Source of the DNA: Thermodesulfobacteriota bacterium
Lineage (GTDB): Bacteria > Desulfobacterota_D > UBA1144 > Nemesobacterales > Nemesobacteraceae
Direction: 5' to 3'
Length of the DNA: 64,000 nt
NCBI GenBank assembly: GCA_965197885.1
Contig: OZ240231.1
Span: 1,839,366 to 1,903,365, forward strand
This document shows, piece after piece, positions 6,488 to 21,763 of this stretch. The notes beneath the pieces were generated by a model. The model was not told the DNA's origin and did no database searches. It worked only from the letters and a program-made list of their open reading frames with translations. A program made the translations under genes and the position numbers. Position 1 is the first letter of the stretch; each line of letters opens with the position of its first letter.

Positions 6488-7282
6488 ATGATAAGAAGAG
6501 AATCCGGCGAGGGATGGACACTCATAACGCAGCCAAGCCATGCTTTTCTTTCTTCTAGAATAATGAATTTCTGGGGCAATGAGGATTTTGAAAGCATCGC
6601 TCCCAGAGATGAGGTGATGCTGGCGATAAGAGAACATGACTGCGGATGGGAGAAAACGGATACCATGGCTGAACTCAACCCGGGAAACGGCTATCCAAGA
6701 AACTTCATGGAGATGCGGGCCGAGAGCCAGTTAGAGATCTGGTCCGAGTGTTTCAAGAGACATCTCGGCGAACATCCATACGCCTGCGCGCTTATAGCGC
6801 TTCACTTCTCCGAACTTAACGACAGAACCATATACAGAGATCCGGCCAACGAAGCGGCCGTTTCGCTTAGAAAGAAAATCAGGGAACTTCTGCGCCAAAG
6901 CCTTGGGATCAAAACTGGAGAAGGAAGCCTGAATGGATACCTTCCTGCCGATGTCCGGACCAATGTCAGGTTTCTTCAGGTAGGTGACATAATATCGCTT
7001 GCTTTTTGTCACGGAACAAAATCAGTCACGATTCCTGATGTTCCGGTTAATTACCTCGGAGACACGACGGAAGTAACCCTGCTATCAGAAGACGGGCTTA
7101 ACTATACAGTTTTCCCCAATCCTTTTTCACGGGACTTACTTCGTTTTGACATATCGGGCAGAAAACTTGAGAAAAAATCGTTTGGCGCGACGTCGGAACT
7201 TGAAGAAGCGTTTTGCCACGCGGGCGGCGAAACCTTCGATCTTTCGATTTCTTTGCGAGTGGAGGGAAAGAATGTCGCTTGA
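6488..7282 (+). CDS. Hypothetical protein, possibly DUF3891-like, between glcE and glcF
   Basis: 264-aa ORF on the same strand. Its stop overlaps the glcF start as ATGTCGCTTGA. Confidence 0.4.
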   Translation: MIRRESGEGWTLITQPSHAFLSSRIMNFWGNEDFESIAPRDEVMLAIREHDCGWEKTDTMAELNPGNGYPRNFMEMRAESQLEIWSECFKRHLGEHPYACALIALHFSELNDRTIYRDPANEAAVSLRKKIRELLRQSLGIKTGEGSLNGYLPADVRTNVRFLQVGDIISLAFCHGTKSVTIPDVPVNYLGDTTEVTLLSEDGLNYTVFPNPFSRDLLRFDISGRKLEKKSFGATSELEEAFCHAGGETFDLSISLRVEGKNVA

Positions 7283-8567
7283 GACCGCTTTTGACGATAC
7301 AGACCGCCCGAGCAGGAAGATAATACAGGATTGCGTTCACTGCGGGTTCTGTCTTCCCTCCTGCCCCACCTATCTTGAAACCGGAAACGAACTCGACTCT
7401 CCCAGGGGAAGAATCCATCTGATAAAAGCCGCGGAAGAGGGGAGAATCCCGATGGGTTCCTCGCTTGTAAAACATCTTGACCTGTGTCTTGGGTGTCTTG
7501 CCTGTGAAACCGCGTGTCCCTCAGGAGTCAAGTATGGAAGCCTGATAGAAATGTCGAGGGATCAGATTGAAAGGAGATTCAAGAGGGGGCTGCGGGAGAA
7601 AATGCTAAAGGCTTTTATCTTCAGCATTTTTCCCTATCCGCGAAGGCTAAGGTTTCTTCTGCCGTTTGTCTACCTAGTAAAAGCACTTGGCCTTAAGAAA
7701 ATTTTCCCGCCGTGGCTTCTTGACAGGGTAAGTCTCTCGGCTTCTTCCATGTTCCATATGCTCCCCGAGGTCAACTCTGCTTTCGGGGAAACTCTTACGG
7801 CTTTTTATCCGGCACTTGGAGAGAGAAAAAAGAGAGTCGCTCTTCTGAGCGGCTGCGTGCAGGGGGTTTTTTTCCCCGAAATAAACAGGGCTACGGCCGA
7901 AGTGCTTAGCGCAGGCGGTTGCGAAGTTCTTGTTCCGCAGAATCAGGGGTGCTGCGGAGCCCTTTCCATTCACTCTGGAAGGCTTGAGGAGGGAAGGAGG
8001 TTCGCAAGAAGACTCGTGGATCTTTTCGCCGCCGTGGATGTAGATGCCATAGTTGTTAATTCCGCTGGATGCGGTTCGACCATGAAGGAGTACGTCGAGA
8101 TTCTGCGGGGGGATCCGGTTTACTTCGAAGCTGCAGCGCGACTTTCAGAGAAAACCGTAGATGTCATGGAATTTCTTTCAGATATGGAAATCGGGGCGCA
8201 ACTGCACCCTCTTGATATAAGGGTTACTTATCAGGACGCGTGCCATATCGTTCACGGCCAAGGGATAAAATCTGCTCCAAGGGAACTTCTGAAAAGCGTC
8301 CCGGAGCTCACGCTTACCGAGATGCAAAGATCGGATCACTGCTGCGGAAGTGCCGGAATATATAATATGATACAACCGGAGATGTCCGCCAAGCTCCTTT
8401 CTGGGAAGGTGCGGGAAATACAAAAAACCGGTGCCGATTATCTGGCTGTCGGGAACCCTGGATGCATGATGCAGATCCGCAAGGGGTTGCTCGGCTCAGA
8501 CTCTGGAACCAAGATTGTACATCCCGTCGAAATCATCAACTGGTCGCTCAAAGGTGGTATCAGTTAA
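7272..8567 (+). CDS. glcF: Glycolate oxidase iron-sulfur subunit GlcF
   Basis: Two 4Fe-4S ferredoxin motifs (CVHCGFCLPSCP, CLGCLACETACP) and two CCG cysteine-rich domains. Start set at MSLETAF. Confidence 0.8.
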   Translation: MSLETAFDDTDRPSRKIIQDCVHCGFCLPSCPTYLETGNELDSPRGRIHLIKAAEEGRIPMGSSLVKHLDLCLGCLACETACPSGVKYGSLIEMSRDQIERRFKRGLREKMLKAFIFSIFPYPRRLRFLLPFVYLVKALGLKKIFPPWLLDRVSLSASSMFHMLPEVNSAFGETLTAFYPALGERKKRVALLSGCVQGVFFPEINRATAEVLSAGGCEVLVPQNQGCCGALSIHSGRLEEGRRFARRLVDLFAAVDVDAIVVNSAGCGSTMKEYVEILRGDPVYFEAAARLSEKTVDVMEFLSDMEIGAQLHPLDIRVTYQDACHIVHGQGIKSAPRELLKSVPELTLTEMQRSDHCCGSAGIYNMIQPEMSAKLLSGKVREIQKTGADYLAVGNPGCMMQIRKGLLGSDSGTKIVHPVEIINWSLKGGIS

Positions 8568-8586
8568 GCAAAGTCAGGAGACGCTT

Positions 8587-8883
8587 TTAACCCAGCACAG
8601 AGTCCTTGCAGGCTTTTGCCACCCTGAACTTCAATACCTTTCTAGCCGGTATGTTGATTGCTTCACCGGTAGCGGGATTTCTTCCCATTCTGGCGCTACG
8701 ATTGCTAATAACCAGTTTGCCGACTCCGGGAATTGTAAATTCTCCTTTTGCTTTTACTTCTTCACATGCAATTGACGCTATAGAGTCAATAACGGTTTTG
8801 GCTGTTGCCTTCGTTATTCCCACCTTCTCTGCGAGGCTGCTTGAAAGCTGGGATTTTGTTAATGGTTTTTCGTTCACTAACAT
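8587..8883 (-). CDS. hup: HU family DNA-binding protein
   Basis: 98 aa with a typical HU/IHF fold signature (GFGKF-like GEFTIPGVGKL, RNPATGE). Confidence 0.85.
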   Translation of the reverse strand: MLVNEKPLTKSQLSSSLAEKVGITKATAKTVIDSIASIACEEVKAKGEFTIPGVGKLVISNRSARMGRNPATGEAINIPARKVLKFRVAKACKDSVLG

Positions 8884-9021
8884 CCTCCTTAAGGATTTCT
8901 TAGTAGATTATCGGAGTATTTTGGTTAAAAGTCAATCATTTTATCCGTTGTTGCCAAACCTCAGGACTCTTGATACTGTATAAATATCCTGTTTTATTTG
9001 AATTTTTGGGTGGAAAGCTAG

Positions 9022-10155
9022 ATGAGATCTTGGTTCAGGGAAAAGAGAAGCTGGTTGGTTTTCCTTTCAATATTCTTGGGGTTCCTCTTTGTTCTGGTTT
9101 TTCTGTATGCGAAGTTTCTTTACGAAAGGGAGTCGAATGCGCACTATCATTCAGAAGAGAGCGCCTACAGGCCCATAAAGGTAATGACGCCTGTTTCATC
9201 TTCAGGTTCAATTTACACCGAAGTTCTCGGAAGGGTCCGCGGCAAGCAGACTGTCTTGGTCCGCACGACCGTTTCGGGATGGGTAAGGCGGATAGATTCC
9301 GGCCGGGGCCAAGAAATTGAGAAGGACGGAATCATTCTGGAGCTCTACGATTACCGTGTGGAAACGCGGCTTGACGAGGCGAAGTACAATCTTGAATCCG
9401 TTAGGGGAAAGCTTGCCGAGGCCGACAGAGTATACCGAAGGAACACGGCTCTTTTTGAGAAGGGAATAGTATCTGGGGATGAGACCGAAGCGTCGCGCAA
9501 CCTGTTTGAAACCGCTTCGGCAAGTGTAAAAGCGCTTGAAGCTTCTTACAACAGGGCCAAGTGGAATTATGACAACCTCAAAATCCGGTCCCCTATCCAG
9601 GGTCAGGTTGTTGAAATCGTTCCCGACATCGGACAGGAAATAAGAAACGGGGACGTAGTAGCGAGGGTCGTTAACCTAAGTGGCAGAAAAGTAATAGCTG
9701 GTGTGGACGTGTTGGTTGCTAGAGGCGTCAAGCGGGGGGATGTTCTGGAGGTGGTTCTCTCAAGAGATGGCATTGTGGAAACCGTCAAGGGCGAAGTTGA
9801 GGGCGTAAGTCCAGGTTCTGATGATTTCTCGGGTACCTACGATATCGAGATTGCCATATCCGATCCCTCGGTAAAATGGTGGCCGGGGGAAATAGTTTCC
9901 GTGAAAATATTGATGCGGAGATTTGATAATGTCGTCAAGATTCCTAAAACAGCCGTTTTATTCGACAATAAGGAAGCTTTTTCTTTCGTGCTGGTCGAGA
10001 AAAATGGGGAAGTTTCCAAGATTAAAGTGACACCCACCTGGATTGACAATAACTCGGCTTACATATCTTTTAATTCACTTCCGCCAGATTCCAGAATTAT
10101 AACCGAGGGAAACTTCGGTCTGCTTCCTGGCCAACTAGTAAGGATTATCGACTGA
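9022..10155 (+). CDS. Efflux RND transporter periplasmic adaptor subunit (HlyD/membrane fusion protein family)
   Basis: N-terminal TM segment, coiled-coil region and beta-barrel/lipoyl-like motifs. Its C-terminal RIITEGNFGLLPGQLVRIID is duplicated in degraded form at 16141-16204. Confidence 0.75.
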   Translation: MRSWFREKRSWLVFLSIFLGFLFVLVFLYAKFLYERESNAHYHSEESAYRPIKVMTPVSSSGSIYTEVLGRVRGKQTVLVRTTVSGWVRRIDSGRGQEIEKDGIILELYDYRVETRLDEAKYNLESVRGKLAEADRVYRRNTALFEKGIVSGDETEASRNLFETASASVKALEASYNRAKWNYDNLKIRSPIQGQVVEIVPDIGQEIRNGDVVARVVNLSGRKVIAGVDVLVARGVKRGDVLEVVLSRDGIVETVKGEVEGVSPGSDDFSGTYDIEIAISDPSVKWWPGEIVSVKILMRRFDNVVKIPKTAVLFDNKEAFSFVLVEKNGEVSKIKVTPTWIDNNSAYISFNSLPPDSRIITEGNFGLLPGQLVRIID

Positions 10156-10161
10156 TTTTCC

Positions 10162-10260
10162 ATGCATATCGCCATTTTTCAACTTTTGTGGTACTTTATC
10201 CGGTTCCCTGCCTTTATTTGGCTCTTGACGATATTGGCGAGAGGCGATGGAGACGTTCTG
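10162..10260 (+). pseudogene. Remnant of an RND permease gene: the first ~20 nt are fused to the last ~75 nt
   Basis: atgcatatcgcc-atttttca matches the RND start at 16211. ctttatttggctcttgacgatatt matches the RND 3-prime end at 19229-19252. The fusion is out of frame. Confidence 0.55.
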
Positions 10261-10281
10261 TCCCCACAAAGGCACTCGGGT

Positions 10282-11445
10282 TCAGTGCGGGTGGTTCCTG
10301 AGAAATTCGCATTTCTGCCTGATGATTTCCGTCGCCGTTTCTACCTCATCGAAACTGTTTTCTGGGCAGAAACTGAATCTTACGCTTGAATAAGCGTGCT
10401 GTTCGCTGAGTCCCATGGCGGTTAGCACGTAGGAGGGCGCAACCTCGAAATTTGTGCAGGCGGAACTCTGCGAACACCTTATTCCCGATTCATCAAGGAG
10501 AGAAACCAGTTTTCTTCCGTTAGTTCCCCCGAAATGAATATTCGTGGTGTTACATACTCTTTTTCCGGCAAGTCCGTTAATTGAGGTCTGCGGTATGGAT
10601 TTGATGATTATTTTCTCAAACTGATCGCGAAGGTCTTTCATTTTCCCGACGGCTTTCTCAAAATTTACGCGTCTTATCTCGCATGCGGCCCCGAGGCCCG
10701 CTATACCCGGAAGATTCTCGGTTCCGGGACGAAACCCTTCTTCTTGGAATCCTCCGAAAAGAAAAGGATTCACAAGCAGTCTGTCTTTTGCGTATAGAAC
10801 TGCGGCGCCCTGAGGCCCGTTGATTTTATGAGCCGTGAAGGAAAGGAAATCCACGTGAAGCTTCTCCAGGTCCACCCTGAGTTTTCCTATGGCTTGGGCG
10901 GCGTCGGTGTGAAAAGGAACCCCCTTCTCCCTGCAAAGTTCGGAAATAGGTTCCATGTCCTGTATCACTCCAGTTTCGTTGTTAACCCACTGAACAGAAA
11001 CAAGATCGGTTTTTTCGCAAAGCGCGTCTTCCAGCCTGCGGACATCAAGAATCCCTTGTTTGTCCACCTCGAGTATTTCCACGTGGACACCGTTCAGTTC
11101 GAGAAAACTGCACATCTTCATTATCGAGGAATGCTCAATTCCCGTTGTGACGATTCGGGGTTTTTTCTTCTTCCCTGTGCAGGAATAAAAGACCATGTTA
11201 TTTGATTCCGTGCCGGAGCTTGTGAATATAAGGTCTTCTGGGGAACATCCCAGAAGACCGGAGGTACGTTTGCGCGCAAGCTCCATGCGGTGCCTCGCCC
11301 TCTCGCCCGCCGAGTGGGCACTTGAAGGATTGCCGAATTGCTCCCCAATGGCCTCGCACATGGCCTCCGTCACCTCCGGAAGGGGCCTTGTGGTTGCATT
11401 GTTGTCAAAGTAGATTTCGCCGGAATTTTCCTCTATACACCCCAT
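10282..11445 (-). CDS. Cysteine desulfurase (NifS/IscS family, class V aminotransferase)
   Basis: YFDNNATT near the N-terminus, SFTAHKINGPQG with the PLP lysine, and a C-terminal SSACT motif. Start set at MGCIEEN. Confidence 0.8.
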   Translation of the reverse strand: MGCIEENSGEIYFDNNATTRPLPEVTEAMCEAIGEQFGNPSSAHSAGERARHRMELARKRTSGLLGCSPEDLIFTSSGTESNNMVFYSCTGKKKKPRIVTTGIEHSSIMKMCSFLELNGVHVEILEVDKQGILDVRRLEDALCEKTDLVSVQWVNNETGVIQDMEPISELCREKGVPFHTDAAQAIGKLRVDLEKLHVDFLSFTAHKINGPQGAAVLYAKDRLLVNPFLFGGFQEEGFRPGTENLPGIAGLGAACEIRRVNFEKAVGKMKDLRDQFEKIIIKSIPQTSINGLAGKRVCNTTNIHFGGTNGRKLVSLLDESGIRCSQSSACTNFEVAPSYVLTAMGLSEQHAYSSVRFSFCPENSFDEVETATEIIRQKCEFLRNHPH

Positions 11446-11474
11446 TATGAAGCTAATAATACATGATTTTGCGG

Positions 11475-11882
11475 CTAAGGTGTCTCTTGCGGCAGGTCTT
11501 CTGGCAGAAGAAGGGTTATGCAAGGTTCCTCGGAGTCTTTCGTTACCGGCCCTAGACAGGAAATGACCTGAAATTCCTGACCTTTTCCGTCTTTGGTAAC
11601 TGAAGCGGTGAAATTGATCAGGTTTGTTCTCCTCGTCTTTCTAGTCGCCCTTATTGATGAAACAAGCGGAGAAAGTATCTCTTTTAGCCTCGTGTTCTCA
11701 TCCTCGCCGCGGGCTGTGGCCTCGGAGTCAGGCTCCATTATTTCTTTTTTCAGCAGAGAGGTCACGAATATGCGGATCATGAGGCCTGATTCTCTCGCCA
11801 CCTCAGATACCTCGAACTGTTTTTCCAGTTCGATGTCCGCCTCTCTTTCCATGCAGAACATTTCCATTTTTCTCTCCGGCAA
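11475..11882 (-). CDS. Hypothetical protein upstream of the desulfurase on the same strand
   Basis: 135-aa ORF sitting 27 bp before the nifS-like start. I recognise no domain. Confidence 0.3.
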   Translation of the reverse strand: MPERKMEMFCMEREADIELEKQFEVSEVARESGLMIRIFVTSLLKKEIMEPDSEATARGEDENTRLKEILSPLVSSIRATRKTRRTNLINFTASVTKDGKGQEFQVISCLGPVTKDSEEPCITLLLPEDLPQETP

Positions 11883-11954
11883 TATCAGTAGTATATACTA
11901 GATAGTTTAGCCGGGATATACAAAACGCGGTCGTGGAAGCGGGAGAGATTTTAG

Positions 11955-12731
11955 ATGAGCAAAACTGGAGAAATAAGACTTGTTTCCCTCGGGGGAATGC
12001 GGGAAGTGAAAAAGGGAGACAATCTCGGGGAGATGATCCTTCGCGCCGCCGCCCGGGAGGGGTTTTTGTTTCTCGACGGAGATGTCTTGGTGGTTGCGCA
12101 GAAGGTGGTCTCGAAAGCTGAAGGCAGGGTCGTTAATCTTTCCCGGGTCAAGCCTTCTGGTTTTGCAGTTACGGTTTCGCGGGAGGTTTCAAAGGATCCT
12201 AGGCTCGTAGAGGTAATTCTCGGGGAGACTAGAAGGATCGTAAGAATGGACCAGAGGGAAAGCGGCAAGGGGAGACTTATAGTTGAGACCGCTGGGGGGT
12301 TTATACTGGCAAATGCTGGCGTGGACGCCTCAAACGTTTCTGGAGGAGAAGATGTCACACTTCTGCCGCTTGATTCCGACCGCTCCGCCGGGGTTATAAG
12401 AGAACATATAAAAGGAGAAACTGGCAGAGATGTTGCCGTTATAATAACCGACACTGTCGGACGTCCCTGGCGGGAAGGTCTTACAGACATTGCGATTGGC
12501 TGTAGTGGCATGAAGGCGCTTTCTGATCGCAGGGGGGAGACCGACGCCAAGGGGCTTGTGCTTACCGCGACTGAGATGGCGACTGCTGATCAAGTGGCGT
12601 GTGCTGCCGGGATGCTGATGGAGAAAACCGCAGCGACCCCTGTGGTGGTAGTGCGCGGGGTCGACTACATTCGGGGAGAGGGAGGCTCGGGTGAACTGAT
12701 CAGAGATCCGGCTCATGATCTGTTTAGATAG
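11955..12731 (+). CDS. cofE: Coenzyme F420-0:L-glutamate ligase family protein (CofE-like)
   Basis: GDVLVVAQKVVSKAEGR and ILANAGVDASN motifs as recalled for the CofE/FbiB N-domain. Confidence 0.65.
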   Translation: MSKTGEIRLVSLGGMREVKKGDNLGEMILRAAAREGFLFLDGDVLVVAQKVVSKAEGRVVNLSRVKPSGFAVTVSREVSKDPRLVEVILGETRRIVRMDQRESGKGRLIVETAGGFILANAGVDASNVSGGEDVTLLPLDSDRSAGVIREHIKGETGRDVAVIITDTVGRPWREGLTDIAIGCSGMKALSDRRGETDAKGLVLTATEMATADQVACAAGMLMEKTAATPVVVVRGVDYIRGEGGSGELIRDPAHDLFR

Positions 12732-12745
12732 TTTCCACGGATTTC

Positions 12746-13429
12746 ATGAAAGGTTTTTTCGAAAAAGATTTTCTTCTCATTTCTCATCGGGGCGCTAGTC
12801 ATTACGAACCGGAGAACACGCTTCGATCTTTCCGCAGAGCTCTGGACATGGGATCCAGTGCGATAGAATTCGACGTAAGAAAAAGTCTTGAGGGCCGTCT
12901 GGTAGTCATTCACGACGGGACGGTTGACAGGACCACGGACGGTAAGGGAACCGTTTCGGGAAAAACTCTTGGCGAACTTCGATCTCTTGATGCCGGCTGT
13001 GGGGAACGGATACCGACTCTTGAGGAGGTATTGGAGAATTTCGGGGGGCGTTGCGGACTTGTAGTCGAGCTCAAGGAAAAAGGCACGGAAGAGAAAACGG
13101 TTTCGCTTATAAAGAAACATGGTCTTACAAAAGATGTCGCGGTGGTTTCTTTCCGCGAGGACTGTATCCGTGCGGTAAGGGAGCTTGATCGCTCAATTAC
13201 AACGGGACTTATTACGGTTTTCGGCTTCGGATGCGTTAATAAGGCTCTTTCGCTCGGTTGCCGGGTAGTTGCTACGAATTACCGTTTCATGACGCGCCGG
13301 CTTGCCTCGAAAGCGCGAAGAAACGGTCTTTTTGTGTGCTGCTGGACGGTCAATGACCCAAAGCGAGGTGAAAAACTGGCCGGGATTGGGATTGACGGGC
13401 TGATTACCAACAAGCCCGACCTGCTTTGA
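12746..13429 (+). CDS. Glycerophosphodiester phosphodiesterase
   Basis: HRG-x-ENT and EFDV motifs of the GDPD family. Confidence 0.8.
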   Translation: MKGFFEKDFLLISHRGASHYEPENTLRSFRRALDMGSSAIEFDVRKSLEGRLVVIHDGTVDRTTDGKGTVSGKTLGELRSLDAGCGERIPTLEEVLENFGGRCGLVVELKEKGTEEKTVSLIKKHGLTKDVAVVSFREDCIRAVRELDRSITTGLITVFGFGCVNKALSLGCRVVATNYRFMTRRLASKARRNGLFVCCWTVNDPKRGEKLAGIGIDGLITNKPDLL

Positions 13430-13569
13430 AACCCGTTTGCCGCCACGCCCGATTTTACCCCCGCGGCGTTAACCTGCTGAAATTAACTTGACTCCAGGTT
13501 GCTTCCGGTACTGTGCGTTGCCGTGATTTGCGCGGTTGATCGGTTATTATTCGATATCAGATATGCTGT

Positions 13570-14754
13570 TTGACCGACGGTGAAAAAATGTCGCCCGATC
13601 CCGGACATTACATATATCTCGACTATAACGCGACCACGCCCCTTGACCCGTGCGTTCTGGAAGAGATGATTCCCTATCTTGCAGAAAATTACGGGAACCC
13701 TTCCAGCATTCACTCTCCCGGAAGCGCCGCGCGCGCGGCGCTTGACTGCGCTCGGGAGAGAGTATCGAGTTGCCTGGGGGCTAGGCCAGGAGAAATAGTT
13801 TTTACTTCCGGGGGGAGTGAAAGCAACAATTTTGCCGTGAAGGGTCTCGCCTGCGCTCTTTCGGACAGGGGAAACCATCTGGTTACGACCGCGGTCGAGC
13901 ACGCCTCGTGTCTTGAAACGTTCAAGTTCCTTGAGCGCAGCGGTTTCGAAGTCACTTACCTTCCGGTGGATTCCTTCGGGCTGGTTTACCCTGAGCAGTT
14001 CCGGGAAGCGATTACCGAGCGAACGATTCTTGTATCCTGCATGTACGTTAACAACGAGACCGGGGTTATAAGCCCGATTCGCAAGATAGGAGAGATTGCC
14101 CGCGAGAGGGGTGTGATTTTTCACACGGACGCGGTACAGGCTCTAGGAAAAGTGGAAATAGACTTTGCGGACCTGCCGGTGGATATGGCGTCTTTTTCCG
14201 CCCACAAGGTCTGCGGTCCGAAAGGAGCCGGGGCTCTTTACGTAAGAAAGGGAGTCGGACTGGAATCTTTTGTTCACGGCGGGGGACAGGAGAGGGGAAA
14301 GAGGTCGGGAACCGAAAACGTGGCGGCCGTCTGCGGATTCGGTTTTGCGTGCGAACTTCTCCGCGGGCAAGTGGGGTTTGAGAACAAAAGACTGACAAAC
14401 TTGCGAGACCGTCTCTTCGAAGAGCTTTCCCGGAGAATAAAGGATGTTTATCTGAATGGACATCCCGATGAGAGGGTCTGCAATACTCTTAACGTGGGTT
14501 TTTCCGGGACTCCGGGCGACTCGGTGGTAATGAATCTTGATACCGAGGACGTGGCGGTTTCAACCGGTTCAGCTTGTTCCGAGGGGAACGTGGACGCTTC
14601 CCATGTATTGATCGCTATGGGACGCGAGGAAAAGGAGGCGCTCAGCTCGGTCAGGTTTAGCTTCGGCCGTTTTACACGGGAGGAGGAAGTCGACAGGGTG
14701 ATCGATCTTCTCCCGGCGGTAGTGAGAAGAATAAGAGAAATCCAGAGCTTGTAA
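13570..14754 (+). CDS. Cysteine desulfurase (NifS/IscS family), second paralog
   Basis: YLDYNATT, SFSAHKVCGPKG and SSVRFSF motifs. Confidence 0.8.
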   Translation: MTDGEKMSPDPGHYIYLDYNATTPLDPCVLEEMIPYLAENYGNPSSIHSPGSAARAALDCARERVSSCLGARPGEIVFTSGGSESNNFAVKGLACALSDRGNHLVTTAVEHASCLETFKFLERSGFEVTYLPVDSFGLVYPEQFREAITERTILVSCMYVNNETGVISPIRKIGEIARERGVIFHTDAVQALGKVEIDFADLPVDMASFSAHKVCGPKGAGALYVRKGVGLESFVHGGGQERGKRSGTENVAAVCGFGFACELLRGQVGFENKRLTNLRDRLFEELSRRIKDVYLNGHPDERVCNTLNVGFSGTPGDSVVMNLDTEDVAVSTGSACSEGNVDASHVLIAMGREEKEALSSVRFSFGRFTREEEVDRVIDLLPAVVRRIREIQSL

Positions 14755-14817
14755 GAACCCAGAATACCTAACCTATTTAAAATGTTGACATTACCCTTAT
14801 AATAAGCCCCGCCGAAA

Positions 14818-15858
14818 CTAGGGATAAAGCGGGAGGGAGTCAAGTCCGAGACTCTCGGGAAGGTCAAGCATAATGTTCATGTTCTGTATCGCTTGGCCCG
14901 AGGCTCCCTTTACAAGGTTGTCTATAGCGCACACTAGGACTGCGGTTTTTTTGTCAGAATTTGCCTTTACACCTATGTCGCAGAAATTCGAGCCCCTGAC
15001 GCAGGAAGTGTTCGGAAATGTTCCCTCCGGAAGAATTCTCACGAAAGGCGAGTTCTCGTAAAATTGCCCGAGAGCGTCCAGAAGTTCGCGGGTTGTATGC
15101 TTGCCTGAGAGGGTTACGTATATTGTCGAGAGGATTCCCCTGTTTATCGGTATCAGGTGTGGTGTGAAAACGACTTCTATTTTGCCGCCGAGAAAATCCG
15201 AAAGACCCTGCTCTATTTCAGGGGTATGACGGTGTTCGCCGACTTTGTAGGCTTTCATCCCTTCAGAGATCTCGCAGAAATGAAGATCAAGTGAAGGGTT
15301 CCTTCCGGCACCCGAGGCGCCCGATTTCGAATCGATAATTACCCCTTCCGTTTCCACCATGCCGTTCTCGAGAAGCGGGGCGAGCGGAAGAATTGAAGAG
15401 GTGGGGTAGCATCCCGGGTTTGCCACCAGTTTTGCCTCCGATATCTGCTCCGCATGCAGTTCGGGGATTCCGTAAACGGCGTTTTCGAGAAGGTGGGCGC
15501 ATGGATGATCCCCGTACCACTCTTTGTAGGTGCCTTCCTTGAGGCGGAAATCTGCCCCGAGATCAATTATTCTTATGTCTCTTCCGTAAATTTCTTCTAT
15601 AAGTTCGGCGGATGCGCCGTGTGGCAGTGCTGCGAATACCACGTCGGTATCGTGTGGAATGAGCGAAGGGTCAGAATTGGAAAGTTCAAGATCGGTTATT
15701 CCGCCGAAGTGCGGAAAAACTTCTGCCAATGCACGCCCGGCGTGCCTTGACGCGGTTAAATGCGAAATGCTCGCTTGGGGATGTCCCTGAAGCAGTCTTA
15801 TGAGTTCCGCTCCCGTGTAGCCGCTTGCTCCCAGAATACATACGCTAAGCCTTTTCAT
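14818..15858 (-). CDS. argC: N-acetyl-gamma-glutamyl-phosphate reductase
   Basis: GASGYTG N-terminus and the active-site motif PGCYPT. Confidence 0.9.
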   Translation of the reverse strand: MKRLSVCILGASGYTGAELIRLLQGHPQASISHLTASRHAGRALAEVFPHFGGITDLELSNSDPSLIPHDTDVVFAALPHGASAELIEEIYGRDIRIIDLGADFRLKEGTYKEWYGDHPCAHLLENAVYGIPELHAEQISEAKLVANPGCYPTSSILPLAPLLENGMVETEGVIIDSKSGASGAGRNPSLDLHFCEISEGMKAYKVGEHRHTPEIEQGLSDFLGGKIEVVFTPHLIPINRGILSTIYVTLSGKHTTRELLDALGQFYENSPFVRILPEGTFPNTSCVRGSNFCDIGVKANSDKKTAVLVCAIDNLVKGASGQAIQNMNIMLDLPESLGLDSLPLYP

Positions 15859-15929
15859 AACCGTGAAACGATACTACGGGAATTGGGAAAACTCAATCCA
15901 TATTCGCAATTCGGGCATCTGTCCGAGAG

Positions 15930-16204
15930 ACTACGGAAGGAATTTTACGTTGCTGATACTTCTTTCTGGAAGTTCCGGTGCTTCTTCCGAGAATTAGGCG
16001 GTGTTCTATTATCCGGTACAATTACCGAAGGCGTTTTGAAGTCATGACTGACTGTAGATCGGGTGGAAATTCTGTTTGACAAGGCAAGATACGGTTTCTA
16101 GTCCCAGGGGGAAATCTGCCGATACCGAAGAGACATACAGCTTGATCGGTTTCCCGCAGACTCCGGGGATTATAATAGAGTGCACAGTAAGTATTATCGA
16201 CTGA
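15930..16204 (+). pseudogene. Decayed 3-prime remnant of an efflux adaptor gene, directly upstream of the intact RND gene
   Basis: 16141-16204 aligns to the adaptor gene end at 10081-10155 with a 24-nt deletion. The terminal agtaag.attatcgactga is 18/19 identical. Confidence 0.5.
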
Positions 16205-16210
16205 TTTTCT

Positions 16211-19200
16211 ATGCATATCGCCGATTTTTCAGTAAGAAATTCCTTTTTCGTGAACCTGTTGATGGGAGCCATAATATTTATAGGGCTTCTGTTTTCATTC
16301 TCCCTTCCTCTTGAGCTGTTTCCGTCTGTCAAACTTGAGATGGTGACAGTAACCACGTCTTTTCCGGGTTCTTCAGCCGAAGACGTCGAGAATCTTGTAA
16401 CTATTCCTATCGAGCAGCAGATAAAAAACGTCTCCGGCGTCAAGATCGTAAAATCCGTTTCTTCCGAAGGCTTCTCACGGGTTACGGCTGAGGTTTATCC
16501 AGGTGAAGACACCCGAAGAATCTCTTGGGAGATCGATTCCAAAATCAACCTGATAGCGGATGATCTTCCCGAGGACGCCGAGGAGCCTGTGACCGAAGAG
16601 AAAGAGGCGAGTTTTCCGCTTGTGAGCGTTTCTATTTCAGGGGATATGCCAATAGCTGTTCTCTATCCCAGTGCCAAAAAATTGCGGGATGAACTTGCGC
16701 TTTTAGACGGTATTGACAACGTAACTTCCGTAGGGCTGCCCGACCCGGCCCTGTGGGTGTATCTCGATTATCCGAAGATGGTGCAGTTCGGACTGGGCAT
16801 TGAAGAGATTTCAGATGCCATCAACAGAAGAAATCTGGATGTTCCCGGAGCGAACTTTACGCGGAGCAATGCTGATTTTCTGTTGAGAACCGAGGGCAAG
16901 ATAAGATCTGTGGAAGACCTTCTCGATATTCCGGTCGCTAAAAACGTGGAGGGCAAACATGTTCTGCTCCGCGACGTGGCGACGGTCACTATCGGCGAGC
17001 AGCAAGAGGATTTGAGGTCAAGAATAAACGGTCGCCCCGCGATTACCTTCTGGGTGGAAAAGCAGAAAAACGTCGATATCTTGGATACAGTCGACCGCAT
17101 AAAGCAGCTTACCGAAAAATACGAAAGCGAACTGCCAAAAGATGTGGAGATAACCCTGGCGTTTGACAGGTCAGACTGGGTGAAAAGTCGTCTTGGTACC
17201 ATGCTTAGAAGCGGTGGACTGGGGCTTGTTCTGGTAGTGATCCTTCTCGGTCTTTTTCTTGACCGCAAGGCGGCCTTTATCGCCGCCTTGGGAATTCCCG
17301 TTTCTTTTCTGGGAGCCGCGATATTAATGAAGATGACCGGAACAACGCTAAGCACCCTTTCCATGTTCGGTCTTATAATGATGCTGGGCATGATCGTGGA
17401 TGACGCAATAATCGTCGTTGAGAATGTGCAGAGGCATATATTAAGGGGAGTGGAACCGCTGAGGGCGGCGGTAATAGGGACAAAAGAGGTCGCTTGGCCT
17501 GTGGTTGCGACGGTGCTGACCAATATCGCCGCGTTTACCCCCCTTCTTCTCGCGACCGGGCTCATGGGACAGTTCCTTTCCATCATTCCCAAGGTCGCGA
17601 TCTTTGCGCTTTGCTTTTCCCTTTTCGAAGCCTTGGTGATTATGCCGTCTCACTGCGCCGACTGGCTTCCGGCAAATGGCGCAGCGAGACCCCCTCGCGG
17701 AAACGCGGCACTTCTGCGCGTAAGAGGCCTTTATCTGCGAGGACTTCTATTTGCGCTTAGAAACCGTTACGTGGTAATAGGCTGTTTCTCGGTCATTTTT
17801 CTTTTTTCGGTTTTTATATTTGTCCGGATTCCCAACGTCATGTTCTATCTTCATGATACCGAGGAGATACTGGTAAGGGTTGAGAATCCTCCCTCATCCA
17901 GCTTGGAGTATACGGTCGCTTCCGTAGCCCAGGTGGAAGAAGCCGTACGCAGTAGCGTTCCCTCTCATGTTCTGAAGAACACTTTATCCATGGTAGGCAT
18001 TGATATGTCTGATCCTGACGACCTGTTTTTTATGGGGGACCACGTGGCAACGGTCCTGATTGAATACGAGGATTATTCCGCTAGGAAAGAAAATGCGATT
18101 GAACTCTCCAAAATCGCAGAAAAAAATGTAGAGGAAACGGTTACGGGACCTAAACAAGTTGATTTCATCACGACAACGGGTCTTCCCACCGGAAAACCGG
18201 TAGACGTCAAAATAAGCGGAGATGATATCCCGGTGCTGATGGACATAGCTTCTCAGACCCGGGAGTTTCTGAGTAGTCAATCGGGGGTGAGCGCCGCGGC
18301 AAGCAATCTTGTTTACGGAAAGCCTGAGGCCACAGTCGAAGTGGACGGGAGAAAAGCCGGGGTGTTCGGTCTTGACAAGTGGAACGTGGCGCGGGAAATC
18401 AAGGCTCTCGGAGACGGTCTCACGGTTGCCAAGACAAGAGTGGGGGAAGAAGAGGCTGAGATAAGCCTGCGATACCATACGGGGGAGTCCGATGTCTTCT
18501 CGGTAAAATCGCACCAGATTCCGACTCCTCTCGGGCGGAGGGTTCCTATCGGCACTGTGGCGGAGATAAAGGACTCTAAGACACCGCTTGAGATAAGAAG
18601 GGAGAACCTTCGCAGAACGGTAACCGTAACGGCTGAAGTGGACGTCCGAACGACTACTTCAAGGGAGGTAAACGCGAATCTTTCGCGGTATCTCGACAGC
18701 CTTTTAGAGAACTACTCGGGCTACTCGTTTCGATTCGCGGGGGAGGAGGAGCAGTACACCCAAGCGATAAGCGACATAAAAAAGGCGTCGCTTGTTGCCC
18801 TGCTTCTCATTTATCTCATTCTCGCGAGCATACTGCGCTCCGGCTTTCAGCCGCTTATCATAATGAGCGTTCTGCCTCTTTGCGTTACTGGCGTGCTCGT
18901 GGGGATTCTGCTGCGTGGAGAGCCCATGACGCTTCCCGCCATAATAGGAATAGTTGCGCTTCTGGGCATAGTTGTGAACGACAGCCTGCTGCTGCTGAAT
19001 TTTATCAACCGAAGGGCGAAAAAAATGCCGAGCAAGGCAATAGCCGTCATGTTTTCCGCAAGGTATCGCTTTCGGCCCATCGTTCTTACCACGCTTACGA
19101 CTTTCTCTGGACTTTTCTCCCTGATGTTAGCCTATAAGGGCCAAGCAGGCATTCTCGCTCCTATGGCCACTTCCATTGGATTCGGACTTGTTTTCTCGAC

Positions 19201-19327
19201 CTTTGTTATACTTTATCTGGTACCTTGTCTTTATCTGGCTCTTGACGATATTACCAAGCGGTTACGATATTTAACCCGTGCGAAAACATTCGGACCAAGT
19301 GTGGGAGGTTCCCTGCAAACTGGCTAA
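16211..19327 (+). CDS. Efflux RND transporter permease (AcrB/CzcA family)
   Basis: 1038 aa with 12-TM RND topology and large periplasmic loops. Confidence 0.9.
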   Translation: MHIADFSVRNSFFVNLLMGAIIFIGLLFSFSLPLELFPSVKLEMVTVTTSFPGSSAEDVENLVTIPIEQQIKNVSGVKIVKSVSSEGFSRVTAEVYPGEDTRRISWEIDSKINLIADDLPEDAEEPVTEEKEASFPLVSVSISGDMPIAVLYPSAKKLRDELALLDGIDNVTSVGLPDPALWVYLDYPKMVQFGLGIEEISDAINRRNLDVPGANFTRSNADFLLRTEGKIRSVEDLLDIPVAKNVEGKHVLLRDVATVTIGEQQEDLRSRINGRPAITFWVEKQKNVDILDTVDRIKQLTEKYESELPKDVEITLAFDRSDWVKSRLGTMLRSGGLGLVLVVILLGLFLDRKAAFIAALGIPVSFLGAAILMKMTGTTLSTLSMFGLIMMLGMIVDDAIIVVENVQRHILRGVEPLRAAVIGTKEVAWPVVATVLTNIAAFTPLLLATGLMGQFLSIIPKVAIFALCFSLFEALVIMPSHCADWLPANGAARPPRGNAALLRVRGLYLRGLLFALRNRYVVIGCFSVIFLFSVFIFVRIPNVMFYLHDTEEILVRVENPPSSSLEYTVASVAQVEEAVRSSVPSHVLKNTLSMVGIDMSDPDDLFFMGDHVATVLIEYEDYSARKENAIELSKIAEKNVEETVTGPKQVDFITTTGLPTGKPVDVKISGDDIPVLMDIASQTREFLSSQSGVSAAASNLVYGKPEATVEVDGRKAGVFGLDKWNVAREIKALGDGLTVAKTRVGEEEAEISLRYHTGESDVFSVKSHQIPTPLGRRVPIGTVAEIKDSKTPLEIRRENLRRTVTVTAEVDVRTTTSREVNANLSRYLDSLLENYSGYSFRFAGEEEQYTQAISDIKKASLVALLLIYLILASILRSGFQPLIIMSVLPLCVTGVLVGILLRGEPMTLPAIIGIVALLGIVVNDSLLLLNFINRRAKKMPSKAIAVMFSARYRFRPIVLTTLTTFSGLFSLMLAYKGQAGILAPMATSIGFGLVFSTFVILYLVPCLYLALDDITKRLRYLTRAKTFGPSVGGSLQTG

Positions 19328-19499
19328 TGCCTAATCATCCGGTACAATTACAAAAGGTGTTTCGAGGGGCTTAGTTAACTGGAAGCCGGGTGGAAAGAAC
19401 AAACTAAAATCACGATGCTTTACCATTCGTATGGCTGTGTGAAATGGCGCGGTCACGGGGCGAAACACTGTGATTGTTCTCAAATTGATTATCCTATTT

Positions 19500-19532
19500 G
19501 ACTAACCGCAGACAAGTGTATAGTTTTTGCGA
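19500..19532 (+). promoter_or_regulatory. Candidate sigma70 promoter for the gap-pgk-fbaB cluster
   Basis: TTGACT, then a 15-16 nt spacer, then TATAGT, about 30 nt upstream of the gap RBS ggagg. Confidence 0.35.
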
Positions 19533-19562
19533 AATTCAAAGTCAAGTTTCGGAGGTTTTACG

Positions 19563-20570
19563 ATGTCTATCAGGGTTGGAATAAATGGGTTCGGGAGGAT
19601 AGGAAGGCACGCACTTAGAATTGGTCTTGGTAGAGAAGATCTTGAGTTCGTGGGCATAAACGATATTACCGATACAGAAACCCTGGCCCATCTTTTCAAG
19701 TATGATTCGGTGTTCGGTCGCTACCCGGGAGAGGTAAAGTGCGACGGCGAGGGAATAACCGTTGACGGAAAATCCATAAAGGTGTTTTCTGAGAGAAACC
19801 CTGCGAATATTCCGTGGGCCGACACGGGAGCGCAGGTCGTGGCGGAGGCAAGCGGTATTTTCAGAACCCGCGAGGCTGCGGCGGCGCACATGGGCGAGAC
19901 CGTGAAAAAGGTCATAATTACCGCGCCCGCAAGCGGCAAGGTGGATTTCACTACGGTAATGGGTATAAACGACCATGAGTACGAGCCCGAAAGTCACGAC
20001 GTGATCTCAAACGCGTCCTGCACGACCAACTGTTTCGGTATGCTGGTCAAAGTTCTCCACGAAAATTTTGTGATCAGGCGGGGGGAGATGACCACCATAC
20101 ATTCCTATACGAACGATCAGAGAATACTTGACACCCCTCATAAGGATAAAAGAAGGGCAAGAGCGGCCGCTCTTTCAATTATTCCCACCAGCACCGGGGC
20201 GGCAAATGCAATACAGATCGTCTTCCCTGAACTCAAGGGAAAACTCTCCGCGGTAGCCGTGAGAGTACCTACACCCAACGTATCGCTTGTGGATTTTACC
20301 TGTGAGGTGGAGAAAGGAACTTCTACGGAGGAAGTAAACGCAAAATTCAAGGAGGCGGCCGAAGGAAACCTCGGCGTTTACCTGGCATACGTCGAGGACG
20401 AAATCGTTTCTTCCGATCTGGTGGGAGACACCCATTCCTGCTCTCTTGACTCCATGCTGACTTCGGTTGTAGAGGATAGTCTGGTCAAGGTTGTCGCCTG
20501 GTACGACAACGAGTATGGATACACTTCCAGGGTAGTTGATCTTATAGCGCTTGTCGGGAGAACGCTTTGA
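19563..20570 (+). CDS. gap: Type I glyceraldehyde-3-phosphate dehydrogenase
   Basis: INGFGRIGR N-terminus and the active-site motif SNASCTTNC. Start trimmed to MSIRVG at 19563. Confidence 0.9.
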   Translation: MSIRVGINGFGRIGRHALRIGLGREDLEFVGINDITDTETLAHLFKYDSVFGRYPGEVKCDGEGITVDGKSIKVFSERNPANIPWADTGAQVVAEASGIFRTREAAAAHMGETVKKVIITAPASGKVDFTTVMGINDHEYEPESHDVISNASCTTNCFGMLVKVLHENFVIRRGEMTTIHSYTNDQRILDTPHKDKRRARAAALSIIPTSTGAANAIQIVFPELKGKLSAVAVRVPTPNVSLVDFTCEVEKGTSTEEVNAKFKEAAEGNLGVYLAYVEDEIVSSDLVGDTHSCSLDSMLTSVVEDSLVKVVAWYDNEYGYTSRVVDLIALVGRTL

Positions 20571-21763
20571 AGAAAAAGCTTCTTGTAACCGATCTTCCCG
20601 GTTCGCAGTACGAAGGGAGAAGAGTTTTCGTAAGGGTTGATTTCAACGTTCCTGTAAACGGTGGGAAAATAACCGAAGATTACAGGATAAGACGCACTAT
20701 CCCCACAATCGATTACCTTACCAAGTGCGGAGCCAGGGTAATACTTGCTTCCCACATGGGAAGACCCAAGGGACGCAGGGTAGAAGATCTTTCAATGGCT
20801 CCGGTGGCGGCGAGGCTTAGCGAGTTTCTGGGAGCCAAGATCCGTTTTCCGGGTGCCGTTGTGGGCAAGAAGGTTGAAAACGCCTCGAAAAAGCTCAAAA
20901 ACGGCGAGGCAATGCTCCTTGAGAACCTCAGGTATCACAATGAGGAAGCGGAAAACGACGCGGATTTTTCGAAAAAACTTGCGTCTTTGGCCGATATCTA
21001 TGTGAACGAAGCTTTTGGCACCTCGCACAGGGCTCATGCTTCTACTTACGGAATGACTGCCCACTTCGAGAAAAAGCTCGCCGGCCTCATGGTGGGAAAC
21101 GAAATAAAGTTTCTTAGCCGTCTAATAAAAAAACCCAAGAAACCCTACGTGGTCATTGTAGGGGGAATGAAGATAAAAGACAAGATAGGCGCTCTCAAGA
21201 ACATAATCAAAAAGGCGGACAGGGTTCTTTTAGGTGGCGGGGTGGCCTATACTTTTCTGGCGGCGTCCGGGGTGAGCGTCGGGAAATGCTCCGTGGAGAA
21301 GGAAATGCTTTACTGGGCCCGGGAGGCTCTTGAAACCTACAAGGAAAAAATCCTTCTCCCCATTGACCACGTAATGGCCGAGACCGCCAGCGGCAAAAAA
21401 ACACTTGTGGTGACTGCCGCAGAGATTCCCGATGACATGACGGCTTTTGACATAGGGCCGAAGACGGTGGAGAAATTCACTTCCCATATAAAAGGGGAGG
21501 GCACGGTTTTCTGGAACGGCCCCATGGGATTTTTCGAGAGGGACGATTTTTCAAACGGCACGAGCTCCATCGCCAGGTCGTTCGCTCTCGCCACGTGGAG
21601 GGGGGCTACTACGGTTCTCGGAGGAGGAGACAGCGTGGTGGCACTTAAAAAGTCCGGTGTTAAGTTCTCCGAAATAACCCACGTGTCTACCGGGGGCGGG
21701 GCCTGTTTTGAATTTCTAGGAGCATCCGACCTTCCGGGAATATCGATTCTCAGTGACAGTTAG
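20567..21763 (+). CDS. pgk: Phosphoglycerate kinase
   Basis: TTG start overlapping the gap stop (TTTGA). Pgk motifs RVDFNVP and GGGD are present. Confidence 0.9.
   Translation: MKKKLLVTDLPGSQYEGRRVFVRVDFNVPVNGGKITEDYRIRRTIPTIDYLTKCGARVILASHMGRPKGRRVEDLSMAPVAARLSEFLGAKIRFPGAVVGKKVENASKKLKNGEAMLLENLRYHNEEAENDADFSKKLASLADIYVNEAFGTSHRAHASTYGMTAHFEKKLAGLMVGNEIKFLSRLIKKPKKPYVVIVGGMKIKDKIGALKNIIKKADRVLLGGGVAYTFLAASGVSVGKCSVEKEMLYWAREALETYKEKILLPIDHVMAETASGKKTLVVTAAEIPDDMTAFDIGPKTVEKFTSHIKGEGTVFWNGPMGFFERDDFSNGTSSIARSFALATWRGATTVLGGGDSVVALKKSGVKFSEITHVSTGGGACFEFLGASDLPGISILSDS

Follow-up and report, generated by a model that had tools for sequence, protein, structure and literature searches.

A split adaptor-RND efflux operon in a Dadabacteria clade, most probably the product of an old tandem duplication and complementary loss

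How do the two genes of an efflux operon come to lie 6 kb apart, each with a remnant of the other beside it and with five unrelated genes in between? The question is raised by a window of 64,000 nucleotides (nt) on contig OZ240231.1 of a Thermodesulfobacteriota bacterium (assembly GCA_965197885.1, positions 1,839,366 to 1,903,365 of the forward strand; all coordinates below are those of the window). In this window an intact gene for an RND periplasmic adaptor is followed by a remnant of an RND permease gene (R1), a block of housekeeping genes (block X), a remnant of the adaptor gene and finally an intact RND permease gene (R2). An earlier note, made from the letters of the window, had offered two mechanisms, tandem duplication with reciprocal deletions and a recombination-mediated insertion of the 5.7 kb block into the operon. 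The first of these is supported here by the polarity of synteny and by the remnants that it predicts. Duplication followed by complementary loss is the most probable cause of the split (probability about 0.85), as an event that is ancient and fixed in a clade of Dadabacteria. The earlier note had also set an ancient fixed arrangement against a rearrangement footprint; both descriptions are true of this locus.

The direction of the change is given by gene order in relatives. Related loci from genome and metagenome assemblies (codes of the form L0xx) were gathered, 31 genome loci with the RND protein as query and 80 metagenome loci with a NifS-like protein of block X. The nearest relatives are metagenome-assembled genomes (MAGs) labelled Candidatus Dadabacteria or Thermodesulfobacteriota, and the RND protein of one of them, L001, is 98% identical to that of the window. 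The split order, adaptor-[block]-RND-GAPDH, is found in the window and in 29 related loci, 26 of which (MAGs) cover the RND side; three metagenome loci (L032-L034) cover the adaptor side only, and in these the adaptor gene is directly followed by block X with no RND gene between. The split-order loci form one clade on a neighbour-joining tree of concatenated proteins rooted on L020. Seven outgroup loci from more distant, Dadabacteria-like organisms (L020, L022, L041, L045, L051, L085 and L105) have the ancestral order DUF3891-FeS-HU-adaptor-RND-<NifS-CofE-GDPD-NifS-<ArgC-GAPDH-PGK, and L069, a locus that ends before the adaptor side, has the same order from block X through GAPDH and PGK. The comparison with related genomes that the earlier note had called for thus finds adaptor and RND adjacent in the seven outgroup loci, and split with remnants in the clade. 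The 36 related loci that span block X, outgroup loci among them, all have its genes in one and the same internal order. Since block X lies downstream of RND in all outgroups, the block was not inserted and it is the RND side that changed; from ancestral to derived order two adjacent blocks swap places with all strands unchanged.

The following course of events would produce this swap. From an ancestral order of HU< adaptor> RND> <NifS-like CofE> GDPD> NifS-like> <ArgC [spacer] GAPDH> PGK> (arrowheads give orientation), a tandem duplication of ~9.7 kb, running from adaptor nt ~338 to the leader of the GAPDH gene (gap) and joined at a 7-nt microhomology, GTGGAAA, would have given adaptor-RND1-X1-[spacer']-adaptor'-RND2-X2-[spacer]-GAPDH. 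The 5'-truncated adaptor copy would have been dead from the outset and have shrunk to fragments of ~80 and ~60 nt. X2 would have been deleted from the stop codon of RND2 to just upstream of the promoter-like element in the spacer, and RND2 would thereby have gained a different stop and, ahead of it, four further C-terminal codons. RND1, probably functional beside the adaptor long afterwards, would then have been destroyed by microhomology-flanked deletions that differed between lineages; in the lineage of the window its first 20 nt would have been fused to its last ~120 nt at TTTTTCA, and one G then lost. On balance RND would have passed to the far side of 5.6 kb of housekeeping genes, with neither an inversion nor a mobile element involved. 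The adaptor would retain its own upstream region, and RND is most likely read from the duplicated element with the adaptor remnant as leader.

The joins of this series lie at definite positions. That of the duplication is a hybrid at 16051-16085, with the gap leader to the left of GTGGAAA (16063-16069) and adaptor sequence from nt 338 onward to its right. The heptamer is present in both parents (9358-9364 and 19390-19396), and the adaptor homology in the ArgC-RND spacer starts exactly at the adaptor GTGGAAA, as judged by nhmmer and shuffling. Two repeats not listed in the earlier note meet at this point. The first is the adaptor piece at 16058-16140, detected by nhmmer at E 2e-6 in the window and 3e-12 in L026 (shuffle p 0.0005); a profile of the adaptor gene matches the same spacer position in 17 loci. 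The other, a fourth repeat, is non-coding, with 16008-16069 matching 19334-19396, and contains a 17-mer, TTATCCGGTACAATTAC (16009-16025 and 19335-19351), that occurs at only two sites in the window against 0.11 expected.

The join left by the loss of the second block is read at the C-terminus of the permease. R2 ends in GGSLQTG and stop, R1 and outgroup L020 end in GGS and stop, and outgroup L022 ends in RGS and stop; the string that follows the R2 join, ACTGGCTAA, is also found in the outgroup ArgC-GAPDH spacer. From GGS extended by LQTG, four codons that had not been listed before, it follows that the deletion of X2 removed the old stop and fused RND to spacer sequence. In copy 1 similar strings flank the interval that was deleted, TTCCTGAGAAATT (10296-10308) and TTCCGAGAATT (15984-15994). 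X2 itself left no internal remnant, only the fused RND C-terminus. As a separate observation, the 3' ends of the ancestral RND gene and of the NifS-like gene, which converge, share 20 nt (10282-10301), and therefore the last six codons of the NifS-like gene, antisense, are carried in the tail of the relocated RND gene (~19295-19312).

The adaptor remnant continues from its 5' piece into a 3' piece that reaches the old stop codon. The decayed 3' fragment of the earlier note stands for its last 19 nt (16186-16204), which are solid and lie inside the junction repeat discussed below; the portion at 16141-16185 is, by itself, only marginal in the window (shuffle p about 0.03, nhmmer E 0.32). The 3' piece is better in relatives, with position-consistent nhmmer E values of 0.017-0.026 in L024 and L026. 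It is in frame, ending in FPQTPGIIIECTVSIID and stop against LPPDSRIITEGN..VRIID and stop in the adaptor. An internal deletion that shortened the adaptor copy further is common to the clade.

The first RND copy has eroded differently in different lineages. In the window the tail of R1 (10175-10244) is 80% identical over 70 nt to R2 (19192-19261). The 23/24 core reported earlier within it (10212-10235 against 19229-19252) is correct, and the tail itself extends ~120 nt to the old stop, not ~75 nt. Loss of a single G after 10173, not listed earlier, frameshifts the remnant in the window; the G is still present in L001 and L003, whose R1 likewise combines 20 nt of the 5' end with ~120 nt of the 3' end, and there the fused open reading frame (ORF) of 46 codons is intact. 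With the G restored, R1 of the window is in frame as MHIADFS joined to TFVVLYPVPCLYLALDD and running to GGS and stop (the remnant reads MHIADFSTFVVLYPVPCLYLALDDIGERRW...GGS and stop). The longest R1 is that of L026, with ~250 nt of the 5' end and ~130 nt of the 3' end (~380 nt) and with both TTTTTCA repeats present, and the form of the window can be derived from an L026-like form by a putative deletion between these two repeats. L008 and L024 keep ~110 nt of the 5' end; L032 and L033 have an identical gap of ~133 nt and, judged by gap length alone, likely the same form of R1 as L008 and L024. L017 and L021 keep scraps, and most other split loci have only a 37-nt spacer in place of R1. Annotators should treat both the 46-codon ORF that follows the adaptor gene and the short ORFs that precede the RND gene as remnants of genes and not as small genes. 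The coordinates of all features are collected in Table 1.

Table 1. Genes, remnants, repeats and joins of the split efflux locus, in window coordinates
Feature	Position	Strand	Basis
Fe-S/CCG protein	7146-8567	+	Pfam/NCBIfam
HU	8587-8883	-	Pfam/NCBIfam
RND periplasmic adaptor (MFP), intact, 377 amino acids (aa), copy 1	9022-10155	+	TIGR01730, HlyD_3, HlyD_D23
GTGGAAA in adaptor (nt 337-343), left end of duplicated segment, microhomology partner	9358-9364	+	Motif position
J1: last 6 adaptor codons, stop, 6-nt spacer, first 20 nt of lost RND copy	10137-10181	+	blastn
R1, frameshifted: first 20 nt fused at TTTTTCA repeat to last ~120 nt, stop TGA 10299-10301	10162-10301	+	Repeat search, ORF comparison
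Block X, ancestral downstream neighbour of the operon (copy 1 kept), ~5.6-5.7 kb	10282-15858	mixed	Pfam, NCBIfam, synteny
NifS/IscS-like aminotransferase (block X)	10282-11523	-	Pfam/NCBIfam
CofE (block X)	11955-12731	+	Pfam/NCBIfam
GDPD (block X)	12746-13429	+	Pfam/NCBIfam
Second NifS/IscS-like gene (block X)	13570-14754	+	Pfam/NCBIfam
ArgC (block X)	14818-15858	-	Pfam; NCBIfam above cut-off
argC-gap intergenic segment, copy 1, now upstream of RND, ending at the join GTGGAAA (16063-16069)	15978-16069	+	Repeat search
Adaptor remnant, 5' piece (mfp'), = adaptor nt ~338-422 (window 9359-9443)	16058-16140	+	nhmmer, shuffle test
Adaptor remnant, 3' piece, = adaptor nt ~1047-1134 with internal deletions, old stop TGA 16202-16204	16141-16204	+	J2, nhmmer
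J2: adaptor-remnant end, stop, 6-nt spacer, first 21 nt of functional RND gene	16186-16231	+	blastn
RND permease, intact, 1038 aa (copy 2, R2)	16211-19327	+	Pfam ACR_tran
Join from deletion of block copy 2: GGS ends 19312, LQTG 19313-19324, stop TAA 19325-19327	19307-19327	+	C-terminus comparison
argC-gap intergenic segment, copy 2, upstream of gap (TACAAT 19343-19348; GTGGAAA 19390-19396)	19313-19396	+	Repeat search
GAPDH, ancestral right flank of block X	19527-20570	+	Pfam, synteny
PGK, ancestral right flank of block X	20567-21763	+	Pfam, synteny

The junction between adaptor end and RND start, present twice as J1 and J2, could suggest at first sight that the event is young. The repeat is there as reported, with 43/46 positions identical and one 1-nt gap (blastn E 5e-12, in a small search space), and the two 12-nt stop-to-start strings, TGATTTTCCATG and TGATTTTCTATG, agree at 11/12, which bears out their description as essentially identical. 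The recency implied by such likeness does not hold. The split order spans a clade in which 4-fold-degenerate sites differ by up to ~0.5, and in the other lineages that have both copies (L026, L008 and L024, which also retain the R1 5' end) 10-12 of the 45 positions are mismatched between J1 and J2. Mismatches number 2/45 in L001 and L003, and the window has the same two plus the deletion of the G after 10173, which both of these relatives keep. J1 and J2 are more alike within each genome of the window group than orthologous copies are between genomes, and they are mosaic: J2 of the window group has GTAAG, which is J1-type elsewhere, and its J1 has ATTATC, which is J2-type elsewhere. Because of this mosaic the homogenisation is read as short-tract gene conversion, and a local conversion of this kind in the lineage of the window, not recency, is the somewhat likelier source of the near-identity. 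The tract is short, which leaves chance retention a small probability (rough binomial p about 1e-3). Constraint accounts for some of the likeness, on adaptor coding in J1 and on the RND start region in J2, a region whose ATTATCGACTGA-6 nt-ATG context the clade has conserved throughout. A recent conversion across the whole of R1 and R2 was considered and rejected, R1 being no closer to the R2 of its own genome and only the 45-nt junction being homogenised.

The age of the duplication can be gauged from the remnants. The window differs from L008 at ~0.32 of 4-fold-degenerate sites and from L016, which branches most basally among the split-order loci, at ~0.50. R1 remnants are about 66-83% identical to any R2, that of their own genome included and no closer; R1 of L026 is 85% identical to R1 of L008 and L024. 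The adaptor remnant and both copies of the spacer are common to the clade. The equal distance of R1 from all R2 copies and the closer likeness among R1 remnants point to one duplication that preceded the diversification of the clade and was not followed by wholesale conversion. At one site R1 has the outgroup-like VLV where all R2 copies have FFV.

Codon-position patterns bear on the fate of RND1. Differences at first, second and third positions are 16/7/35 over 202 nt between R1 and R2 of L026 and 6/0/9 over 99 nt between R1 of L026 and R1 of L008; for context, ~0.21 of 4-fold sites differ in neighbouring genes in the comparison of L026 with L008. The absence of any second-position change in R1 is very unlikely for a pseudogene (roughly 4e-4). 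Because these patterns show evolution of a coding type, RND1 is likely to have stayed functional long after the duplication; two functional paralogues would have coexisted, and the adaptor-linked copy would have been lost later, several times.

Several points weigh against duplication and complementary loss. At third codon positions the difference between R1 and R2 reaches ~52%, close to that between either copy and L020; this fits an old duplication and would also fit a second copy obtained from a related lineage. The 37-nt form of the spacer occurs in lineages that are not monophyletic on the neighbour-joining tree, and therefore implies either that the same short repeats gave rise to deletions repeatedly or that lineages recombined, a process of which the mosaic locus of L026 is a case. 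No intact intermediate with two RND genes is present among the 29 other split-clade loci, a limited sample. Finally, present-day sequences are the source of the microhomologies at the joins, since no outgroup is itself the ancestor. A protein search for an intact RND1 with the R1 N-terminus of L026 returned only the L026-type remnant (P0001) and a 95-aa fragment in L112 (GCA_011774285.1, contig JAACBK010000188.1), a low-GC scaffold with a run of N in which an RND gene broken into six ORFs follows an adaptor 3' end. L112 was rejected as an intermediate; its adaptor is only 37-46% identical, and it is distantly related and outside the clade. Among the metagenome loci gathered with the NifS-like protein, only L032-L034 were close additions; each of these three has the split order, and no intermediate was among them.

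The alternative that survives best is that a partial adaptor-RND fragment was acquired upstream of gap, by non-tandem duplication, through a circular intermediate or by horizontal transfer, and that the resident RND gene then decayed. The third-position difference just given would suit such an origin, and recombination between lineages does occur at this locus, the stretch from adaptor to ArgC in L026 being 85-90% identical to the window against 92-95% for its flanks. It is nevertheless improbable. A simple insertion would place the left part of the leader on the upstream side of the insert alone, yet R2 is flanked on both sides by the same segment of 60-90 nt, the part left of the join included. 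R2 also runs into the ArgC-gap spacer exactly where its old stop codon stood, which is what the deletion of a block X formerly behind R2 would give. A spacer-adaptor'-RND-spacer unit already present in a donor would in turn presuppose a history of tandem duplication. The L026 locus is of interest in its own right. Its DUF3891, Fe-S, HU, RND, GAPDH and PGK proteins are those at 92-95% identity (compared with window 6488-21763), and its adaptor is closer to that of L008 (89%), which suggests that a segment of ~7 kb may have been exchanged homologously between Dadabacteria lineages.

Insertion of the 5.7 kb housekeeping block by recombination into an intact adaptor-RND operon, the second mechanism of the earlier note, is very improbable and is rejected here. 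In the window alone the block does lie between two 46-nt junction copies that resemble a target duplication. Yet the same five genes stand in the same order and orientation between RND and GAPDH in all 7 outgroup loci, so that the block is the ancestral right neighbour of RND, and it encodes only NifS-like, CofE, GDPD and ArgC proteins, with no transposase, integrase or other mobility domain. The marks of a mobile element or genomic island are absent from it, there being no mobility genes and the block being present in all 36 loci that cover the region. Insertion would also leave unexplained the duplication of the gap leader on both sides of RND, the adaptor fragment that starts at nt ~338 and the changed RND C-terminus. 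Chance similarity or an assembly artefact (a chimeric contig or collapsed repeat), which might be suspected because the source is probably a MAG and 16141-16185 is only marginally significant alone, has a negligible probability given main repeats at E 5e-12 and 2e-14, copies that have diverged (66-93% identity) and hence are not assembly duplicates, and the same architecture in 26 independently assembled genomes, many of them single-contig chromosomes, with lineage-specific variants.

If duplication and complementary loss moved the RND gene, the next question is how the displaced gene is expressed. The ArgC-RND spacer is ~350 nt long in most loci, and copy 1 of the argC-gap segment within it contains a promoter-like element, TACAAT, at 16017-16022. 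The TTATCCGGTACAATTAC core around this element is nearly invariant in all 22 aligned spacers, and its outgroup equivalent is TTATTCTGTATAATCTC, in the ArgC-GAPDH spacer. Between lineages the spacer diverges by ~46-50% at 15906-15990 and by only 10-28% over the spacer copy and adaptor remnant. In L028 the whole adaptor remnant is gone, with the TACAAT element kept ~30 nt before the RND ATG. Copy 2 of the element, after RND2, is dispensable; it is deleted in L006, L011, L014 and L021, where the gap-proximal TTGACT...TATAGT is the one upstream element left. The latter, a promoter-like element at ~19478-19510 (TTGACT, 15 nt, TATAGT), is conserved in nearly all split-clade loci.

Because the duplicated element is near-invariant amid divergent spacer, is alone kept in L028 and has a dispensable second copy, it is rather more probable than otherwise that RND is now transcribed from it, by what may be called promoter capture, a suggestion drawn from conservation. 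It is plausible in the same way that adaptor and RND now form separate transcription units, with the conserved duplicated promoter-like element upstream of RND. The TACAAT element could instead, or also, serve argC on the opposite strand. Against its role as a promoter, a simple sigma-70 scan does not call it and its -35 region is poor. A scan of promoters and terminators found sites no more often than in shuffled sequence, and no terminator was called after the adaptor gene. The RND start has no Shine-Dalgarno sequence and keeps the old stop-6 nt-ATG context. Translational coupling of RND to the adaptor-remnant ORF was examined and rejected, the frame having no start codon in many loci and a length of 9 to 114 codons, and across loci there is no conserved translated ORF upstream of RND. 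No Rfam family is matched between 8000 and 21000, even at E<=1, and therefore the conserved spacer is not a described riboswitch or leader; RNAalifold gives the leader a few hairpins, with a covariation term of only -1.54 kcal/mol.

A wider reading, tentative and on present evidence doubtful, is that the leftovers of the duplication have been reused. The spacer copy and the adaptor fragment of ~150 nt would serve as promoter and leader of RND, which would be wired to the signal of the glycolytic gap-pgk operon and uncoupled from the adaptor; conversion would preserve the coupling context in the lineage of the window; and the diverged R2 would replace an ancestral-type partner that was lost several times independently.

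The spacers on either side of the relocated gene, ArgC-RND and RND-GAPDH, are also hot spots of insertion in relatives. An insert at L005:8396-9700 carries a TnpB / IS605 OrfB gene (PF01385, PF07282). At L014:6885-10000 an insert of 2.7 kb contains a DDE transposase fragment together with a 498-aa ORF that has no annotation; a direct repeat of ~130 nt of the promoter-like region flanks this insert. Further inserts lie at L007:9102-10000 and 13061-17637 and at L025:13115-14431.

As for the pump itself, domains were scanned with Pfam and NCBIfam in the genes between 560 and 24968. The adaptor matches NCBIfam TIGR01730 (RND_mfp) with 155.3 bits (cut-off 94.9) over residues 53-375, is also matched by Pfam HlyD_3 and HlyD_D23, and is full length in every relative whose locus covers it. 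R2 matches Pfam ACR_tran with 619 bits over model positions 1-1020 of 1021, that is, at full length. Its top NCBIfam match, RND_permease_2, reaches 534 bits, below the cut-off of 1250; all NCBIfam equivalog models are far under their cut-offs, and no named subfamily (HAE1, HME etc.) is reached. No outer-membrane factor domain was found in the genes scanned, and none adjoins the pump genes. An exact-sequence look-up of the RND protein returned no record. The pump is an ordinary adaptor and RND pair with predicted transport function, its subfamily not being assignable from NCBIfam scores.

Within block X, the two NifS/IscS-like cysteine desulfurase paralogues are ~43% identical and lie on opposite strands, flanking CofE and a GDPD-family gene. 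This NifS-CofE-GDPD-NifS arrangement is kept in all relatives, outgroups included. Between the first NifS-like gene and CofE, an ORF of 135 aa (11475-11882, minus strand) gives a sub-threshold match to DUF6573 (23 bits, cut-off 27).

The arrangement can be set beside known systems. Tripartite RND operons such as acrAB and mdtABC resemble it in pairing a TIGR01730 adaptor with a full-length RND permease of 12 transmembrane segments, and in the ancestral stop-6 nt-start junction without Shine-Dalgarno sequence, which is typical of translational coupling. Unlike them, the present locus has its two genes separated by five unrelated genes on both strands, a coupling-type RND start with no conserved translated ORF upstream, and no adjacent outer-membrane factor gene.

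Bacteria are well known to form tandem duplications at short repeats and to lose them again; duplications seen in the laboratory are usually unstable, homologous recombination returning them to the original order. At this locus a new order was fixed instead, through complementary losses. Roth, Andersson and colleagues reportedly described bacterial tandem duplication between short repeats and an innovation-amplification-divergence view of how duplicates are retained. The 7-nt microhomology at the join, the losses at short direct repeats, and the apparent period of two selected paralogues followed by loss of one are in line with that view, whereas here there is no sign of more than two copies or of a new function.

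In animal mitochondrial genomes the tandem duplication-random loss (TDRL) model of gene-order change is established. The locus agrees with this model in that adjacent blocks are reordered without inversion and complementary copies are lost, in that pseudogene remnants and duplicated non-coding sequence stand in direct orientation at the positions of the lost copies, and in that the R1 remnants are orthologues of one another throughout the clade and paralogues of the copy retained, as from a single event. It differs in lying on a bacterial chromosome, in involving ~9.7 kb of protein-coding genes with a functional two-gene operon broken, in that RND1 was apparently under long purifying selection and not quickly lost, and in having short microhomologies at its joins, not slippage linked to a replication origin. 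A literature search for duplication-loss rearrangement of prokaryotic operons returned only mitochondrial TDRL papers, among them PMC5745709 and PMC4223735, and unrelated matches.

The locus is a clear bacterial example of a known route of rearrangement and not a new molecular system. Changes of gene order in bacteria are usually ascribed to inversions, mobile elements or transfer, and intermediates are rarely visible. To our knowledge, a fixed case in which all joins and a series of erosion stages can still be read is uncommon. Here the three breakpoints of a duplication and its complementary losses are readable at nucleotide resolution, and some thirty genomes show stages in the erosion of the pseudogene. 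For the Dadabacteria clade the locus offers a natural, datable example of an operon dismantled with both of its genes kept, of how long a redundant paralogue persists, and of short repeats of 7-12 nt guiding first a duplication and then the later deletions. It is also an example of how a displaced gene may gain a promoter through duplication of the region upstream of a neighbour.

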